A stretch of 32,000 bases of DNA, from NCBI GenBank assembly GCA_009925585.1, contig RFYK01000004.1, positions 1-32,000 on the forward strand. Reading direction: 5' to 3'. How positions within the stretch are numbered: position 1 is the first letter of the stretch; each line of letters begins with the position of its first letter. The notes beneath the pieces are model-generated. The model was not told where the DNA came from. It did not search any database and saw nothing but the letters and a program-made list of their open reading frames with translations. A program made the position numbers and the translations under genes. Shown in pieces: positions 10,671-17,278 of the stretch. This DNA comes from Betaproteobacteria bacterium (GTDB lineage Bacteria; Pseudomonadota; Gammaproteobacteria; Burkholderiales; Burkholderiaceae_C).

Positions 10671-11513
10671 TCAATCAATCCACTCAAAAAAGTGTTCTGT
10701 GACCGCAGGCCATTTGACATGGGACTCAGTCGTCACGCAGTAACGCAACACGTTACCTTGTCCACATCGCTGTACCTGACAGCCTGACACCTCAGTGTGT
10801 ACTTCTTCTGTGCACTGCATGCACTGTGCCCACCACTTGACCGTGCCTGCGCCATAGCCGGGGAACAAATCATCTTTCGGACTGTGCAGCACCGTCACAT
10901 TCAGTGGTCGAGGACAAGGCTCTTGTTGCAAATCTTCTGCGGTGATGCCAGCCGCACTCACCACGATGTTGCGGGGTGTTGGCAACACCGACGAGCGCAC
11001 GGTCAAACCCGTTGTCACACTGCCGCCATCTGAATGCCCTGCCAGCACCACCCGTTGTTCGTCAATGCACCAAGTGGCTGTGACCGCTGGCACCACCTCG
11101 GTTTGCATGCGCAATGCGCGGCTGGATAAAGGCACGGCTGAGCTAAATACCACCACATAGCCTTGGCGGTGGGCTTGTTCAGTCAGTTTGTAATAACGCT
11201 CTGATGTTTCGTTGGAAAACCCCGCAGGTGGAAACATCATCAACAAACCATAGCGATGTGTGGGCTCGTAGTTGCTGGGCGCAATCACCGAGTAGCGCAA
11301 ACCACTGGGTGTGTACAAATCCATGTGCCGACCGGCGGTGCCAGTCATGCCGGCAGGACAACCCACAGGCAGGGTGTTGAGCGAAGCCACTGCCAAGGGC
11401 AATGGCGGTTTGAACCAGCTCAGCGCCACCACATACAAAAGGCCACCCAACGCCAATGCCGCGATCAGCCATTGCCCGCGTTTGAGCCAGTGGGGCGACT
11501 TGCGTTCAGTCAT
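10671..11513 (-). CDS. Membrane-anchored alpha/beta-hydrolase esterase (PHB-depolymerase/LpqC-like); last gene of the CuMMO operon
   Basis: The ATG at 11513 (MTERKSPHWLKRGQWLIAALALGGLLYVV) gives an N-terminal anchor. The nucleophile elbow GHSDGG is present, along with a Cys-rich C-terminus ending ...ESHVKWP that is typical of this esterase family. The start overlaps the upstream copD-fusion gene by 8 nt (cATGACTGA). Confidence 0.6.
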   Translation of the reverse strand: MTERKSPHWLKRGQWLIAALALGGLLYVVALSWFKPPLPLAVASLNTLPVGCPAGMTGTAGRHMDLYTPSGLRYSVIAPSNYEPTHRYGLLMMFPPAGFSNETSERYYKLTEQAHRQGYVVVFSSAVPLSSRALRMQTEVVPAVTATWCIDEQRVVLAGHSDGGSVTTGLTVRSSVLPTPRNIVVSAAGITAEDLQQEPCPRPLNVTVLHSPKDDLFPGYGAGTVKWWAQCMQCTEEVHTEVSGCQVQRCGQGNVLRYCVTTESHVKWPAVTEHFFEWID

Positions 11514-13392
11514 GTTGATGAATCGCAGCGGATTTGATTTTGCCTTCCAAAGACAATGTGTCGTAGATCTGTTTGAGTTCGTTGATGGAAAGCGCAGAAG
11601 GGGATTCATCTGAACGCCAGCGCGCTCTGACAAACCCATAGCGATCAATCAAAAATTCCATGCGCGGGACGCGTGTTTCTTCGTTGAATAAATCGGGGGC
11701 TGCAAAGCTGCGACGGTAATTTGACCAAGCTTGCGCGATGACACCCTCTGAATCGCCCACCAAGATGGCTTCGCAAGGACCCTTGACCAAGTCTTTCAAC
11801 CATTCTGGGCGACTGACGATCACCAGTTGTGCAGGAAAGCCTTTCATGTCTTGCAATAAATCTCGCACCCTTTGCAGCTCGTTTTTTTGGTTGACAAAGA
11901 CCAAATGCACCGCGTGCAAGCCTCGCCATTCAGACAAAGACATGAAGTTGGTTGTGTCCATTTGAAATCGAAAATCAATGCTGGGCAACCAAGGGTTGAA
12001 TGGCGCAGGTGTGTTGGTCAGGCTGCGTGCCTCATGCCCCAGAGACTGCGCAACCAACCAGTTGATCAGATGCCAGCGTTCATCCACGGTCAACACATCT
12101 GCAAAACCCGGCATGAGTCCTTTGCCGTGACTGAGCCACCAAAACATGTCGCCGTGGGTATGCCAATTGACATGCGGCTCGGTCAGGTTGGCGGGTTTCA
12201 TTTGGTTCAGGATCGCCAACGGGCCATCACCATGGCCATGCAGGCCATGACAGGATTGGCAATGTTGTTCATACAAGGCATGGCCAGCGGTGACAGAAAC
12301 CACATCTAGCCGTGCAGATGAGTGCATGTACGTGGTGGGGTAGGCGGTGATGCTGGTGGCAGGCAGCGTCACCACCAATGCGGCCAGGACGCCAGTGCAA
12401 AGCGCAACCCGCGCGAGGAGTCGGAAGGTGTGACGCCCGAGCAACCACAACATGAGGCCAACCACGCCAGCTGCCGCACCCCACGCCAGTTGTTGCACTG
12501 TGCCAGTAGGGTCTTGTTGCCAGGCCAGTACAGGTGCCCAGCGAAATGAAAATGGCCACACGATCGTGTCGTGTGCGGCGGGAATGGTGCTTGCCAACCA
12601 ACTGGCCATCAACAAAACCGCCAAGGCCAAACCCAATTCGCTGGTGAGCCATGTGCGTGCCTGAGCATCAGATGTTTGCGAGCCTCTCAGCCATGTTCGC
12701 AATTGCCATGCACACACCAGTGCACCTGCAACCATCATCAACTTGAGAACCAACTGCAAGCCATAAGGCGTTGCCACCAAGCCGGCCCAGCTGGCCACCG
12801 TGTCGTTGGCCAAGCTGACACCAGAGGCCAAGATCAGCAACATGCCGGGCAGCGCCCAGGTTGAAAAATGTGCCAACGTCAGACGCCAAGTGTTTGTCGC
12901 GGCGTCACTGGTTTTGGCTCGCCACCACAATCCAATCACGCCAGACAGCCACAGTTGTGCCAACAGCACATGCAGGCTTGATACCAGCAGTTGCACCCAG
13001 CTTTCAGCAGCTGCCGCCACATGCCCCGTCAAAGCAGAACCTAGCATGGCAAGCAACAACACACACACGCTCAGCTTGTGATTTCGCAGCCACATGAGGC
13101 TTGTCAGCGCCAGCAGCAGGCAGACCACTTGTGCCAAGACAATTTGACCGACGTGCGTTTGCACCATCAATCCGAGGCTGAACGGTTCATTGCTCAAGTC
13201 TTGCAAAGTCCATGCTGTGTAACCCAAGCGAAGCAAAGCACAACACAGGGCAGAAGAAATCAACCAAGCAACGAGGCGGTGCGCCGAAAGTTTTGGCGTG
13301 TTGAATGGTGGGGTGGAAGTGGTCCAGAGCAAACCGAATGCAAACGCCATCAAGGCAGTTTGTGCACCCCTTAATGCAATGATCGGATCCAC
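11506..13392 (-). CDS. copD: CopD-family membrane protein fused to a class I cytochrome c and a C-terminal thioredoxin-like domain
   Basis: The N-terminal ~400 aa are polytopic and CopD-like. The heme motif CQSCH is encoded at 12247-12261. The C-terminal ~180 aa carry a thioredoxin-fold signature (MEFLIDRYGFVRARW) but no CxxC. The start is uncertain: a GTG at 13392 sits 2 nt after the copC stop, and ATG at 13350 is an alternative. The track start at 13533 would overlap copC. Confidence 0.7.
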   Translation of the reverse strand: MDPIIALRGAQTALMAFAFGLLWTTSTPPFNTPKLSAHRLVAWLISSALCCALLRLGYTAWTLQDLSNEPFSLGLMVQTHVGQIVLAQVVCLLLALTSLMWLRNHKLSVCVLLLAMLGSALTGHVAAAAESWVQLLVSSLHVLLAQLWLSGVIGLWWRAKTSDAATNTWRLTLAHFSTWALPGMLLILASGVSLANDTVASWAGLVATPYGLQLVLKLMMVAGALVCAWQLRTWLRGSQTSDAQARTWLTSELGLALAVLLMASWLASTIPAAHDTIVWPFSFRWAPVLAWQQDPTGTVQQLAWGAAAGVVGLMLWLLGRHTFRLLARVALCTGVLAALVVTLPATSITAYPTTYMHSSARLDVVSVTAGHALYEQHCQSCHGLHGHGDGPLAILNQMKPANLTEPHVNWHTHGDMFWWLSHGKGLMPGFADVLTVDERWHLINWLVAQSLGHEARSLTNTPAPFNPWLPSIDFRFQMDTTNFMSLSEWRGLHAVHLVFVNQKNELQRVRDLLQDMKGFPAQLVIVSRPEWLKDLVKGPCEAILVGDSEGVIAQAWSNYRRSFAAPDLFNEETRVPRMEFLIDRYGFVRARWRSDESPSALSINELKQIYDTLSLEGKIKSAAIHQHD

Positions 13393-13394
13393 GG

Positions 13395-13757
13395 TCAGGG
13401 CGTTTTGACTTTGAAGACGAACTGTCCTCGACTGGCGTGTCCATCTTTGGCCAAGACAGACCACTGCACTTCGTAGTTGTTGGCGACATGCGTGGGCAAG
13501 TTCACCAGCAACGTCAAAGTGACTGCATCCCATTGGATGTTTTCAGCGTTCACAGGCAACGGTTGGGCATTTGCGATGACCTTGATGCGGACAAATTTTT
13601 TCTCGATCGGTTCAGAAAATTTCAACCTCAATTGTTGAGGTGATTGGCCAATGACTGCATTGGCAGGTGGTTCGGTGTGTAGCAAATGGGCATGAGCGCC
13701 AACCCATGAGGGCAAACAAGCCAAGCAAACGCTCAACCAGCGTAAAACCGTGACCAT
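13395..13757 (-). CDS. copC: Copper-binding periplasmic protein CopC/PcoC
   Basis: 120 aa with a signal peptide ending VGA. The mature N-terminus is HAHLLHTEPP, the N-terminal His typical of the CopC Cu(II) site. The motif LAKDGHASRG is also present. The ATG directly abuts the upstream stop (TGAATG). Confidence 0.85.
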   Translation of the reverse strand: MVTVLRWLSVCLACLPSWVGAHAHLLHTEPPANAVIGQSPQQLRLKFSEPIEKKFVRIKVIANAQPLPVNAENIQWDAVTLTLLVNLPTHVANNYEVQWSVLAKDGHASRGQFVFKVKTP

Positions 13758-14327
13758 TCAATGTGCCTGAGTGTCTTTGGCTTCTTGCATGGCCACATCG
13801 CGTTGAAGCCGTTGACGACCGAGCTGCAAACCAAATACCGCGAGCAGCAACAAGCCCAACAAGCCCAAGGTGTATTTCCAATAACCCACACTGGATTTGC
13901 CGACAGAGAAGGGAAACACCGAGGCGTATTTGCGGTCAGCGCCCGCATACACCATGCCAACATAGTCGCCATCGTCCATGAAGTCGTGGCGCACCATCAA
14001 TGTGCCCTTGGGGTAGACCGCCGGTGACAGTTTGTAGACCTCAGGCGCCGCATCCAAGGGGCCATCCGTTTTGCGAACGATGCGAAATTCGATGGGTAAA
14101 TCCCGCAGGGCCAAATCCACCACATCCAGCACGATGATGGTTGGTCCTTTGTGCGGAATGTCTTCACAAAACTCGGTGCGCTGCGCATCTTCTTGGTAAC
14201 CCGCGAAGTGCATCATGTAAGGCCCCACGGTCAGTTTGCACATGTCTTGTTCCATGGACAAACCACCGTGAGCCCACGCCGTGGTGGTAGCCAGCCACAT
14301 GCTTGCAGCCAACCAAACGTGTTTCAT
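13758..14327 (-). CDS. PmoD/AmoD-like periplasmic protein with a C-terminal TM anchor (putative Cu protein)
   Basis: It has a signal peptide (MKHVWLAASMWLATTTAWA), a ~150-aa periplasmic domain with a C-x7-M-x-H motif (CKLTVGPYMMH), and one C-terminal TM helix (YTLGLLGLLLLAVFGL). Its position immediately after xmoB and before copCD matches amoD/pmoD. ATG at 14333 is an alternative start. Confidence 0.55.
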   Translation of the reverse strand: MKHVWLAASMWLATTTAWAHGGLSMEQDMCKLTVGPYMMHFAGYQEDAQRTEFCEDIPHKGPTIIVLDVVDLALRDLPIEFRIVRKTDGPLDAAPEVYKLSPAVYPKGTLMVRHDFMDDGDYVGMVYAGADRKYASVFPFSVGKSSVGYWKYTLGLLGLLLLAVFGLQLGRQRLQRDVAMQEAKDTQAH

Positions 14328-14334
14328 GCGCATC

Positions 14335-15573
14335 TCACAATGCCGTGAAGGTAGGCAGGATCGGTCCACCGACTTCGGTCATCAAACGGTTCCCCGATTT
14401 GTCGACGAAGAACAGCAGGCCACCGAATTTCGAGTCCACATCGGTCAAGAAACTGACCAATCGCTCGACTTCCCACAACGCATCGCTGGCTTCGAATTTG
14501 ATTTCGCGTGTTTCACCCGGCATCAAAGGCTTTTGGTCAGATAAGCCTAAACCACCGCGCGCAACCAAATCACGCGGGTAGTCTGCGCTGATGGCTTTGT
14601 CTGCGCCCGGCGCTTGTGTGTTCACAAACCGCAGGTTGGCTGTGGCGAACTCCAAAATAGAGACAGCTTCTGTGCCATGGTTGGTCATGCGTGCAGTGAC
14701 ATGCATGGCGCGACCAGGCACGTCATAGCTGGCTTTGAGCACCTTGACATCCACTGAATGGGCTGGTTTGGGCAGTGGATCGACTTTGTTGGTACCCGCT
14801 TGCAATGGCACCACATAGGGGTATTCGTGCTTGGCATACATGTAGCCGCCAAACGAGATGGCCACCACCACGACCCCCAAGATCACACCGACGGTGATGT
14901 CACGGTTGCTGATCAGCACATCCTCACGGCCTTTGTTCAAAGCGATCCAGCGTGGCAATAACAAGGGGCGCACCAACCAGAACAGCAACCAAAATGCGGC
15001 CAAGGCAAGCCAAACCGCGTACCACTTGAGTGCGCGTGCCGTGCCGTAGAACTCCAAGTTGTCAACCTCGATGCCGTTCATGGTCGTGACTTTTTGGACA
15101 TAGTCGCCTTTGGCGCCAGTCACTTCAATCCATTGACCGGGACCGACCAATGGTCCCGAGCCATGAATCGACAGCAAGGGGTGGATATGGTGACGACCAG
15201 GGACGCGGCCTTTCATGACCAACTTGAATTCGTAATCGCGGCCCAATTCAAGCTTAGAAAAAGACTGGCGTGCAGGCATGCCATTGAGGTAGCTTTCCAC
15301 CCGAGTGATCATCGGGCCAGGTGAATAAGCAGACAAAAACACCGTGTCAGGCAGGCTGACCGCGTCTGGCCAGTCTTCCATCAAACGAAAACGCCCGATC
15401 AAGGTGAACTCTTCGTTGACCTTGACACTTTGCTTGTCGTAGTGCACGTCGTAGTACTGCACAGTGCGGGTACGCAGGTACGGTTCTTGTGAGCGCTCAC
15501 CGTGGGCCCAAGCAGACTCGGTCGCGATGCCGATCAGCCCTGTCAATCCCAGCCACAGCAACAACATCTTCAT
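14335..15573 (-). CDS. xmoB: Copper membrane monooxygenase subunit B (PmoB/AmoB family)
   Basis: It aligns by eye along its whole length with M. capsulatus PmoB. The signal peptide ends AWA and is followed by HGERSQ (His33 equivalent). RVPGRHHIHP corresponds to His137/His139. Two central TM helices are present. The C-terminal cupredoxin region contains PLQAGT, VPGRAM, NHG, PGETR, WEVERL, FGGLLFF and ends GNR...PILPTF. ATG at 15639 is an alternative longer start that would overlap xmoA by 20 nt. Confidence 0.9.
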   Translation of the reverse strand: MKMLLLWLGLTGLIGIATESAWAHGERSQEPYLRTRTVQYYDVHYDKQSVKVNEEFTLIGRFRLMEDWPDAVSLPDTVFLSAYSPGPMITRVESYLNGMPARQSFSKLELGRDYEFKLVMKGRVPGRHHIHPLLSIHGSGPLVGPGQWIEVTGAKGDYVQKVTTMNGIEVDNLEFYGTARALKWYAVWLALAAFWLLFWLVRPLLLPRWIALNKGREDVLISNRDITVGVILGVVVVAISFGGYMYAKHEYPYVVPLQAGTNKVDPLPKPAHSVDVKVLKASYDVPGRAMHVTARMTNHGTEAVSILEFATANLRFVNTQAPGADKAISADYPRDLVARGGLGLSDQKPLMPGETREIKFEASDALWEVERLVSFLTDVDSKFGGLLFFVDKSGNRLMTEVGGPILPTFTAL

Positions 15574-15619
15574 TGTTTTTTGTATCAACTGCACAATTTT
15601 TCCCCTTGACGTTGAGTGC

Positions 15620-16471
15620 TCAAGCACTGGCTTTGACATCCGCTTTGGTTCCCATCAAAGCCATGACCTTGGCGTTGTTGGGCAGGAATTTCATGGAGGA
15701 CATGGCAATGCCCAAATACCACCAGGCGTAGTGCATGAAGATGCAAATGAAGCCCCCAAACAGGGCAGAGACCCAACTTGCCGAATCACCAAAGGTTCGC
15801 AGCGTGCCGCGTTCGATGATGCGGATGTACTCGGGCGTGGCCGAACGGGGATACACGTAACCGATCAGGTCGGCCATCGAAGCCATCATGCCTTGGTGAC
15901 TCACTGGCACATAAAAAGGCGCAAAGATGGTGTAGTTGGAGGGGTAGAACAAGAAGGCAAATGCAAAGCCACCAAATATCGCGGTGAACAAGGCATTGCG
16001 AAACACCAACAAGAAGACATCCAACACGATGGCACCTGCGATCATTTGTGCGGGCAACACCAAGTTCAGCGGATAGTCGGTCCACCACATGAAAGAGGCG
16101 GGGCGCGAGATCGACACCGCCACCATCAGACAAGTTGCACCCACGGTCGCACCAATGGGCAAGCGAAAGTAAGTCCAGAAGATGCCTTGCAAAGCCGCCG
16201 GGAACATGATCATTACCACGGGCGACAACAACGGCCAGTACTGTCGGTCTTTCCAATCCAAGAACATGTCCCAGTCACCAGCCAGCAACAGCACATGCAA
16301 GTGAATGGCGCCAGCGAACAGCATGATGATGGCAGCAACCACAAAAAGTTCGAAAACGCGTGAGTAATGCAGGGCTTTGGGTGACAGGCCAGAGACGCTC
16401 TCCACAGTATCGTGGGCGTGCGTTTGTCCAGCCGCAGCACCCTGAGGATGTTGCAGTGTTTCAGTGTTCAT
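15620..16471 (-). CDS. xmoA: Copper membrane monooxygenase subunit A (PmoA/AmoA family)
   Basis: 283 aa with LLLAGDWDMFLDWKDRQYWP, FRLPIGAT, LFYPSN and ATPEYIRIIERGTLRTFG, all hallmark PmoA/AmoA motifs. An AGGAG sits 7 nt upstream of the ATG. Confidence 0.9.
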   Translation of the reverse strand: MNTETLQHPQGAAAGQTHAHDTVESVSGLSPKALHYSRVFELFVVAAIIMLFAGAIHLHVLLLAGDWDMFLDWKDRQYWPLLSPVVMIMFPAALQGIFWTYFRLPIGATVGATCLMVAVSISRPASFMWWTDYPLNLVLPAQMIAGAIVLDVFLLVFRNALFTAIFGGFAFAFLFYPSNYTIFAPFYVPVSHQGMMASMADLIGYVYPRSATPEYIRIIERGTLRTFGDSASWVSALFGGFICIFMHYAWWYLGIAMSSMKFLPNNAKVMALMGTKADVKASA

Positions 16472-16498: not shown

Positions 16499-17278
16499 TT
16501 AAGCGTTTTCGTGTTTGAAAACGATAGGCATGAGTTCGCGAAAACGCGAGATGATTTGCATCAAGACGCCTGCCAGTGACAACGCGTTCCAGCCCAAGAC
16601 CACAAAGCCCCAGTGCAATGGGTGAGAGAAGATTTCTTCGGTCAACCAGTAAGCATGGCCCCATTCGTTGTAGCCCAAGTTAGGCAGGATGAGGAAAGGA
16701 CCCACCACGGCAAACACGTGCATCAAAGAAATGCCTTTGCAAAAAGCAGGAATGCGGGTCATGGCATACACAAAACTGCCAATGCCAAACATCAGGTACA
16801 TGGGGATGCATGCATAAAACAGCACAACATGGCTCGGCGTGATGGGTGTGTCGCGAAGCACAGTTTGGTGCCAGTTGCCATCGCCTTCGCCAAAGAAGCT
16901 GCCGATCCAATAGAAAGTGAAGGTGTAAACCACCAACCACATGGTCAGGTAGAAATAGCGTTTGAGTTCGACTTCAGGGGTGATCGCATCGATGTTTCGA
17001 TCACGTGTCATGAACAGGTAAATTTGAATCACTGCCACGATGCCAAACAGCACAGGCAATTGAATGTAGAAAAGGCGCATCCAAATGTCTTGGAAAATGG
17101 GTTCGGTCGAATCCAAGCCTGCGGTCATGCCGTACATCTGTTGATAGACACGGTATGACACATAGACGCCCGTCAGGACGATCATGGTGATGGCAAACCA
17201 GATGTAGCTGAGCGTGAATCGAGACGTGGTGTCGCTCGTTTGGGTGAGGTGAAGTTCTCTGCTGGACAACGTAGACAT
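16499..17278 (-). CDS. xmoC: Copper membrane monooxygenase subunit C (PmoC/AmoC family)
   Basis: 259 aa with TRDRN, GDGNWHQTVLRDTPITPSH (Asp/His/His CuC ligands), KGISL, VVGPFLILPNLGYNEWGH and PLHWGFVVLGW (Asn/His/His CuD ligands). An AAGGAG sits 7 nt upstream of the ATG. Confidence 0.9.
   Translation of the reverse strand: MSTLSSRELHLTQTSDTTSRFTLSYIWFAITMIVLTGVYVSYRVYQQMYGMTAGLDSTEPIFQDIWMRLFYIQLPVLFGIVAVIQIYLFMTRDRNIDAITPEVELKRYFYLTMWLVVYTFTFYWIGSFFGEGDGNWHQTVLRDTPITPSHVVLFYACIPMYLMFGIGSFVYAMTRIPAFCKGISLMHVFAVVGPFLILPNLGYNEWGHAYWLTEEIFSHPLHWGFVVLGWNALSLAGVLMQIISRFRELMPIVFKHENA

Follow-up and report, generated by a model that had tools for sequence, protein, structure and literature searches.

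In the window, the 32,000-nucleotide stretch analyzed here (positions 1 to 32,000 of contig RFYK01000004.1, assembly GCA_009925585.1, Burkholderiales), a long-form copD gene is located within a copper membrane monooxygenase (CuMMO) operon. The operon lies on the minus strand and is composed of xmoC, xmoA, xmoB, a pmoD-like gene, copC, the copD fusion, and an alpha/beta-hydrolase gene (Table 1). A first-pass annotation, made from the bare letters of this DNA, had claimed that the product joins CopD to a c-type cytochrome and a thioredoxin-like domain, and Pfam, profile comparison, and AlphaFold/Foldseek agree on this three-part architecture. Its placement of the fusion inside the monooxygenase operon also holds, the gene following directly after xmoCAB, the pmoD-like gene, and copC. 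The gene is thus confirmed as real, with a predicted product composed of CopD, a heme domain, and a peroxiredoxin-fold domain that lacks the catalytic Cys.

The mechanical open reading frame (ORF) list offers a longer, 675-aa version at 11506..13533 on the minus strand, starting with an ATG inside copC (13757-13395). The ATG at 13533 was rejected as the copD start, since it overlaps copC and the N-termini of homologs coincide in the family alignment with the GTG at 13392, 2 nt past the copC stop; the product is therefore taken to be the 628-aa protein. A plus-strand reading of 11506-13392 was likewise rejected because of its many stop codons. To place the gene among its relatives, 185,579 species genomes were scanned, which returned at least 547 stretches encoding related proteins; locus analyses cover the best 80 of these, all from species-representative genomes. 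The source metagenome-assembled genome (MAG) is fragmented into 278 contigs, and the first-pass annotation itself had allowed for a frameshift or stop between copD and a separate cytochrome gene; such an artefact is refuted by an independent JGI assembly, which encodes a 628-aa protein 99% identical to this one, and by the single unbroken ORF with exactly one CxxCH in 80/80 related loci, including those of cultured Nitrosomonas, Nitrosospira, Nitrosovibrio, Bradyrhizobium, and Polaromonas strains.

Table 1. Coordinates of the long-form copD gene, its domains and motifs, and the surrounding operon in the window.
Feature	Coordinates	Strand	Basis or remark
Whole long-form copD gene	11506..13392	(-)	GTG start at 13392; 628 aa (13392..11509) plus stop at 11508-11506
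CopD core, residues 1-271, eight membrane helices	12580..13392	(-)	Pfam PF05425; hhalign against YebZ; helices of the AlphaFold2 model
His124, equivalent of YebZ His135, periplasmic loop	13021..13023	(-)	hhalign; conserved in 76/76
His141, equivalent of YebZ His154, outer third of helix 5	12970..12972	(-)	hhalign; conserved in 76/76
Residues 272-345, periplasmic loop, then extra helices 9 and 10 returning the chain to the periplasm	12358..12579	(-)	hydropathy, AlphaFold2 model, conservation
Class I monoheme cytochrome c domain, residues 346-457	12022..12357	(-)	Pfam PF13442 and PF00034; Foldseek
Heme attachment motif CQSCH, residues 378-382	12247..12261	(-)	translation; C378, C381, and H382 in 76/76
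Motif PHVNWHTHGD with invariant His407 and His411	12148..12177	(-)	family-specific; candidate copper site beside the heme
Met427 of the invariant MP motif, likely sixth heme ligand	12112..12114	(-)	conserved in 76/76
Peroxiredoxin-fold (AhpC/TSA, Bcp/AhpE-like) domain, residues 458-620	11533..12021	(-)	profile against PDB; Foldseek; PF00578 in orthologs
EFLIDRYGFVRARW, residues 579-592, within the peroxiredoxin-fold domain	11617..11658	(-)	translation
Flexible C-terminal tail ending HQHD	11509..11532	(-)	AlphaFold2: pLDDT <50 for residues 622-628
xmoC	16499-17278	(-)	Pfam and NCBIfam
xmoA	15620-16471	(-)	Pfam and NCBIfam
xmoB	14335-15639	(-)	Pfam and NCBIfam
pmoD/amoD-like gene	13758..14333	(-)	no Pfam match; tblastn relatives between xmoB and copC
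copC	13395..13757	(-)	Pfam PF04234, 68.1 bits; signal peptide
Alpha/beta-hydrolase (esterase-like) gene	10671..11513	(-)	8-nt overlap with the copD stop

The N-terminal part of the protein matches the Pfam CopD family (PF05425) at 50.5 bits, above the cut-off of 32.1, and scores 52.3 bits against the NCBIfam equivalog copper_CopD (NF033808), below its cut-off of 195; it therefore belongs to a divergent subfamily and not to the classical plasmid-type CopD. Profile comparison by hhalign of a 37-member family alignment with Escherichia coli YebZ gave a probability of 99.1 and an E-value of 5e-19, with the whole of YebZ (residues 1-289) aligning to residues 1-271 of the fusion. Import of copper by YebZ in E. 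coli depends on two histidines, His135 and His154 (PMC11923076), and both have counterparts here. Conservation was scored over 76 family sequences, in which His124, His141, Trp148, Lys217, Glu252, His274, Trp279, Arg284, and an AYPTTY linker are invariant or nearly so; the loop after helix 8 contributes His274 (73/76), Trp279, and Arg284 (both 76/76). We regard the protein as certainly a member of this subfamily of CopD-type inner-membrane copper permeases, in its long form, and predict that it imports copper.

A hydropathy scan and the AlphaFold model of the fusion (pLDDT 89.5, pTM 0.83) agree on ten membrane helices. The cytoplasmic loops, five in number, hold 13 Lys/Arg residues and the periplasmic loops 1, and this positive-inside bias places both termini outside, so the heme and peroxiredoxin-like domains are predicted to be periplasmic. 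The topology on which the first-pass annotation relied is thus borne out by prediction. The same prediction puts His124, His141, and His274 on the periplasmic side of the membrane, in agreement with the description of YebZ.

The heme domain matches Cytochrome_CBB3 (PF13442) at 46.7 bits (cut-off 27) and Cytochrom_C (PF00034) at 32.4 bits (cut-off 21.3), and in Foldseek it matches Thioalkalivibrio cytochrome c552, with a TM-score of 0.80 and a root mean square deviation of 1.4 Å. A CxxCH motif, a conserved Met, and this fold together identify it as a class I c-type cytochrome, and heme binding is predicted. The heme motif announced at 12247-12261 is indeed CQSCH, read from the minus strand; these coordinates span five residues, and not the longer string that had been quoted with them. 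Genes resembling those for the cytochrome c maturation proteins CcmF and CcmC are present in the same genome. Beyond the heme ligands, the domain carries the pattern PHxxxHTxGD, which is restricted to cytochrome domains linked to CopD: the pattern recurs in a 433-aa relative that joins CopD to cytochrome c and has no last domain, and FTR1-cytochrome c fusions lack it.

The last domain was more difficult to assign. Neither Pfam nor NCBIfam gave a match in the last ~170 aa of the window's protein, and a single-sequence search of PDB with this domain reached a best E-value of just 0.06. A profile built from 30 relatives matched Bcp-4 (3hjp, E=3e-7), AhpE (5e-5), and ResA (1e-3), and Foldseek matched the folds of AhpE (TM-score 0.61), Bcp, CcmG, and BsSco (1xzo). 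PF00578 matches are found in the Nitrosovibrio, comammox Nitrospira, and Polaromonas orthologs, the window's protein falling below threshold. The second motif quoted in the first-pass annotation, EFLIDRYGFVRARW, is present in the translation at 11658-11617, and the further claim that the domain lacks a CxxC proved correct: the Cys census of the window's domain found one non-conserved residue, C540, with no CxxC and no CxxxC. Across the 76 family members, 62 have no Cys in the domain at all, and no alignment column holds Cys in more than 4. The position of the peroxidatic Cys is occupied by NQKNE in the window's protein and by SWPxS in nitrifiers, and the domain is therefore not a peroxiredoxin in function. 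Sco1-like and TlpA-like (TlpA/ResA/CcmG) chemistry was rejected on similar grounds, the required CxxxC or CxxC being absent and the resemblance confined to the fold; PF02630 (SCO1-SenC) matches neither the window's protein nor six orthologs. The residues that are invariant or nearly so, Arg508, Arg561, Asp583, Arg584, Arg589, Arg591, Trp592, and Glu616, are largely of the Arg/Asp/Trp kind and not metal ligands. His577, kept in 58/76 relatives, is Arg in the window's protein. As a side observation, versions from alphaproteobacterial methanotrophs (L099, L100) carry a single Cys in a small insertion near the peroxidatic position (motif ARC-KPED); a Cys of this type occurs in 4/76 sequences and is absent from the window's protein. 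The chain closes in a tail that is disordered in the model and that across the family mostly reads DHxH, with His625 in 72/76 and His627 in 63/76 members.

To analyze the genomic context of the fusion, the best 80 loci were searched by tblastn with the operon proteins of the window. Upstream sequence of at least 6 kb was available for 42 loci; of these, 23 contain xmoB, 34 the pmoD-like gene, and 34 copC, fractions that are biased upward because the loci rank highest in similarity to the query. In Nitrosovibrio sp. Nv4 the fusion follows amoCAB, amoE/D, and copC, and pmoD-like genes and copC precede it in Nitrosospira, Nitrosomonas, and comammox Nitrospira. Complete xmoCAB-D-copC-copD operons are found in Bradyrhizobium, Polaromonas, Rhodoferax, Methylibium, Acetobacteraceae, and several Burkholderiales MAGs, and in three pmoB-bearing Beijerinckiaceae genomes the fusion lies ~2 kb downstream of pmoB. 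In the tree, the window's protein falls into a well-supported group of nine, of which eight loci carry a CuMMO and the ninth is truncated, while the nitrifier and comammox long-form CopD proteins form one clade. The fusion is inherited together with CuMMO operons. Two observations were made in passing. Nitrosovibrio sp. Nv4 contains, besides three intact amoB genes, a fourth amoB-like stretch broken by stops (G443, C2:1447138-1448267), and operons of Burkholderiales or nitrifier type are deposited as 'uncultured Bifidobacterium sp.' and 'uncultured Clostridia bacterium' (L022, L075), probably through mis-binning or mislabelling.

Within the window's genus, the fusion was found in 3/25 sampled genomes (G000, G017, G018), each time with the xmo operon adjoining, and is therefore accessory there; the xmoA match of G017 contains an in-frame TGA. 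At class level, 400 genomes of at least 90% completeness were evenly drawn. Of these, 15 encode PmoB, 3 the full fusion, and 2 both, one of the two being the window's own genome; Fisher's test gave p = 0.004 with that genome and 0.07 without it. The class sample alone does not prove linkage to CuMMO, which is proven by the locus-level counts. Nor is the linkage exclusive. G037, a complete genome of the same order, has copC directly upstream of the fusion and no CuMMO, and G215 (L107, C57:23000-39000) has no PmoB and carries the fusion between a TonB-dependent receptor gene and a cation-efflux (CDF) gene. The fusion also occurs without PmoB in a Methylocella MAG and in another Beijerinckiaceae MAG, and one chromosome of an ammonia-oxidizing bacterium (AOB; L080/G444) has it far from both amoB copies. 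Linkage of the fusion to CuMMO and PmoD genes is thus strong and not exclusive, which upholds the first-pass expectation of co-occurrence at the level of the locus and limits it by the CuMMO-free genomes. In G215, two unassigned ORFs separate the receptor gene from the fusion, and the surroundings look like a metal-uptake context independent of CuMMO.

We hypothesize that long-form CopD takes part, together with CopC, in redox-coupled uptake or hand-over of copper, and put the probability of this reading at roughly 0.55. The CopC encoded next to it combines a mature N-terminal His with a later DGH motif, the pattern of a Cu(II) site and of that type only. CopC could deliver Cu(II) at the periplasmic entrance of CopD, where His124, His141, and His274 lie. 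The tethered heme, reduced by the periplasmic electron-transfer pool, would convert Cu(II) to Cu(I), perhaps at a site that His407/His411 would form together with the DHxH tail, and the copper would then be translocated or handed on to load the monooxygenase or PmoD. The peroxiredoxin-like domain may serve as a scaffold or docking surface and not as a thiol enzyme. What we infer here is which way copper flows, that the heme reduces it, where near the heme it would bind, and what the last domain does. Several findings speak for the proposal: the import-critical His residues are kept in 76/76 members and the DHxH tail is conserved; the His407/His411 pair is specific to CopD-linked cytochrome domains; in the CuMMO-free genomes G037 and G215 the neighbors of the fusion suggest metal handling; and the fusion is passed on along with CuMMO operons. 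By analogy, cytochrome domains of this type are also fused to the iron permease FTR1, a recurring design of a metal permease with its own redox domain. Of the two roles put forward in the first-pass annotation, handling of Cu(II)/Cu(I) appears the better.

Four points weigh against redox-coupled uptake. Lawton et al. 2016 reportedly found most CopCs in any context to be of the Cu(II)-only type, and the type of the CopC site therefore does not discriminate. The oxidation state of the copper moved by CopD is not established even for YebZ (PMC11923076). According to a review (PMC7558416), a copCD mutant of Methylosinus trichosporium OB3b reportedly showed that neither copper uptake nor the copper switch depends critically on these genes. 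A literature search found no paper testing the extra domains of long-form CopD and no biochemical data for the family. Within the proposal, it is a tentative suggestion that the heme domain, His407/His411, and the mobile DHxH tail act as a built-in cupric reductase, making the protein a redox-coupled Cu(II)-to-Cu(I) loader. If true, such a reductase would provide the step still missing from the copper supply of CuMMOs in betaproteobacterial AOB, comammox Nitrospira, and alphaproteobacterial methanotrophs, and likewise for the newly seen enzymes of Burkholderiales and Bradyrhizobium.

The last domain and the tail could instead point to a periplasmic insertase or chaperone platform for CuMMO or PmoD, comparable with Sco/PCuAC for cytochrome oxidase, in which the thioredoxin-fold domain and the His tail would hold copper and no net import would take place. 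The Sco-type fold (BsSco 1xzo in the Foldseek matches), the designation of this domain as Sco1-like in PMC11923076, the conserved DHxH tail and His407/His411, and the tight linkage to pmoD-like genes are all in keeping with such a platform. The absence of the cysteines weakens a Sco-like role, as the Sco CxxxC is lacking and 62/76 members have no domain Cys; furthermore, SCO1-SenC is not matched, the invariant residues of the domain are not metal ligands, and a full CopD permease core is retained with its functional His residues. We consider an insertase unlikely.

In its second suggestion, the first-pass annotation considered that the heme could deliver electrons to the enzyme. In this scheme the cytochrome would be a dedicated donor or relay to CuMMO or to a CuA-like PmoD, and CopD merely its membrane anchor. 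To our knowledge, the physiological reductant of CuMMOs is unresolved. Adjacency is all that favors the scheme: the fusion shares an operon with xmoCAB and the pmoD-like gene, and its linkage to xmoB (23/42) and pmoD-like genes (34/42) is strong. A dedicated donor is quite unlikely because most CuMMO genomes lack the fusion (present in 2/15 PmoB-bearing genomes of the class sample), some genomes carry it without PmoB (G037, G215, and the two Beijerinckiaceae MAGs), and the protein is scarce, its nitrifier ortholog amounting to 0.02-0.03% of the proteome in AOB, far too little for a stoichiometric donor (PMC5960693). In the L080/G444 chromosome the fusion is unlinked to both amoB copies, and the invariance of the import-critical His residues of CopD would not be needed in a mere anchor. 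The suggestion of electron delivery thus fares poorly.

Very unlikely, finally, is a role in copper tolerance, in which the heme would oxidize periplasmic Cu(I) or signal redox state while CopCD sequesters or clears surplus copper around an enzyme rich in copper; CopC and CopD were historically annotated as resistance proteins and in G215 the fusion has a CDF efflux gene as its neighbor, but CopD/YebZ has been shown to import copper (PMC11923076), the copA and copB resistance genes are not in the operon, and the operon partners require copper and do not export it.

Regarding the neighboring genes, XmoB and XmoC exceed the NCBIfam cut-offs for the bacterial AmoB and AmoC equivalogs and XmoA falls just under its own (282.9 vs 290). 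No HAO-type multiheme gene (PF13447) was detected in the 94%-complete genome of the window, against three in each of two AOB control genomes, and the CuMMO is for this reason probably not part of canonical nitrification. The operon is located in a small, apparently non-nitrifying freshwater Burkholderiales genome. Relatives of the alpha/beta-hydrolase, 32-72% identical, were found by tblastn near the fusion at many CuMMO loci of Burkholderiales and others (L015-L023, L029, L032, L036, L043, L046, L051, L090), and in the closest loci they stand immediately downstream of it. In this CuMMO lineage, though not in nitrifiers, the hydrolase appears to belong to the operon as a conserved member.

How copper reaches copper membrane monooxygenases, and in which oxidation state it arrives, is unsettled. 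Of the components of the extended amo/pmo operons, long-form CopD alone brings a redox cofactor of its own, and its conservation extends from nitrifiers to methanotrophs; it is therefore a reasonable target for biochemistry, with the His pair of the heme domain and the C-terminal DHxH tail as concrete residues to mutate. The window's gene itself adds little to this, beyond an example of this module accompanying a divergent CuMMO operon in the small genome of a freshwater member of the Burkholderiales without HAO.

Comparison with known systems places the individual parts of the protein first. Its last domain shares a fold with the 1-Cys peroxiredoxins AhpE and Bcp and with Sco1, ResA, and CcmG, whereas the peroxidatic Cys, CxxC, and CxxxC of these proteins are all absent, and their chemistry is therefore excluded. 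E. coli YebZ (yobA-yebZ-yebY) has in common with the fusion the eight-helix core, both tested His residues, and an upstream CopC-type partner; at 290 aa, it lacks helices 9-10, the heme domain, and the thioredoxin-fold domain, and its YebY partner is missing from the window's locus. Bacillus subtilis YcnJ is likewise a CopD permease with additional extracytoplasmic domains related to copper, although these are an N-terminal CopC fusion and a C-terminal DUF1775/YtkA-like domain and not a heme domain and a peroxiredoxin fold. The FTR1-cytochrome c fusions (e.g., of Stutzerimonas azotifigens; P0071-P0073) join an iron permease to a related class I cytochrome c, with 35% identity over 100 aa, but their permease belongs to another family (PF03239), and they have neither PHxxxHTxGD nor a peroxiredoxin-fold domain.

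The closest counterparts are the long-form CopD proteins of nitrifiers and methanotrophs, encoded in pmoCAB-pmoD-copC-copD-pCuAC of OB3b, in amoCABED-copCD of betaproteobacterial AOB, and in comammox Nitrospira, which have the same three Pfam domains in the same order. By tblastn and in the tree, the window's protein is placed with those of Nitrosovibrio Nv4, Nitrosospira Nsp1, Nitrosomonas, comammox Nitrospira, and Beijerinckiaceae methanotrophs. They are homologous to the window's protein over residues ~73-620, OB3b CopD itself being compared by description only, and share with it the invariant His residues, the CxxCH, the Met, the DHxH-type tail, and a gene order with a pmoD-like gene and copC in front. 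Identity to the window's protein is just 30-36%, and the latter differs in its tail (HQHD, not HVH), in the Arg at the His577 position, and in a PF00578 score below threshold; its locus differs in a host without HAO and in an esterase gene downstream of copD in place of pCuAC. The first-pass annotation had presented the fusion as a departure from classical CopD, a view that cannot be kept. The three-domain architecture is already described in print and is not new with this gene: among ~50,000 proteobacterial CopDs, ~4% contain a cytochrome cbb3 domain linked to a Sco1- or thioredoxin-like domain, the CopD of M. trichosporium OB3b being one of them (PMC11923076). The window's gene is the usual long copD of the extended amo/pmo operons in nitrifiers and methanotrophs, the gene that papers on nitrifiers, comammox bacteria, and methanotrophs label plainly as "copD".

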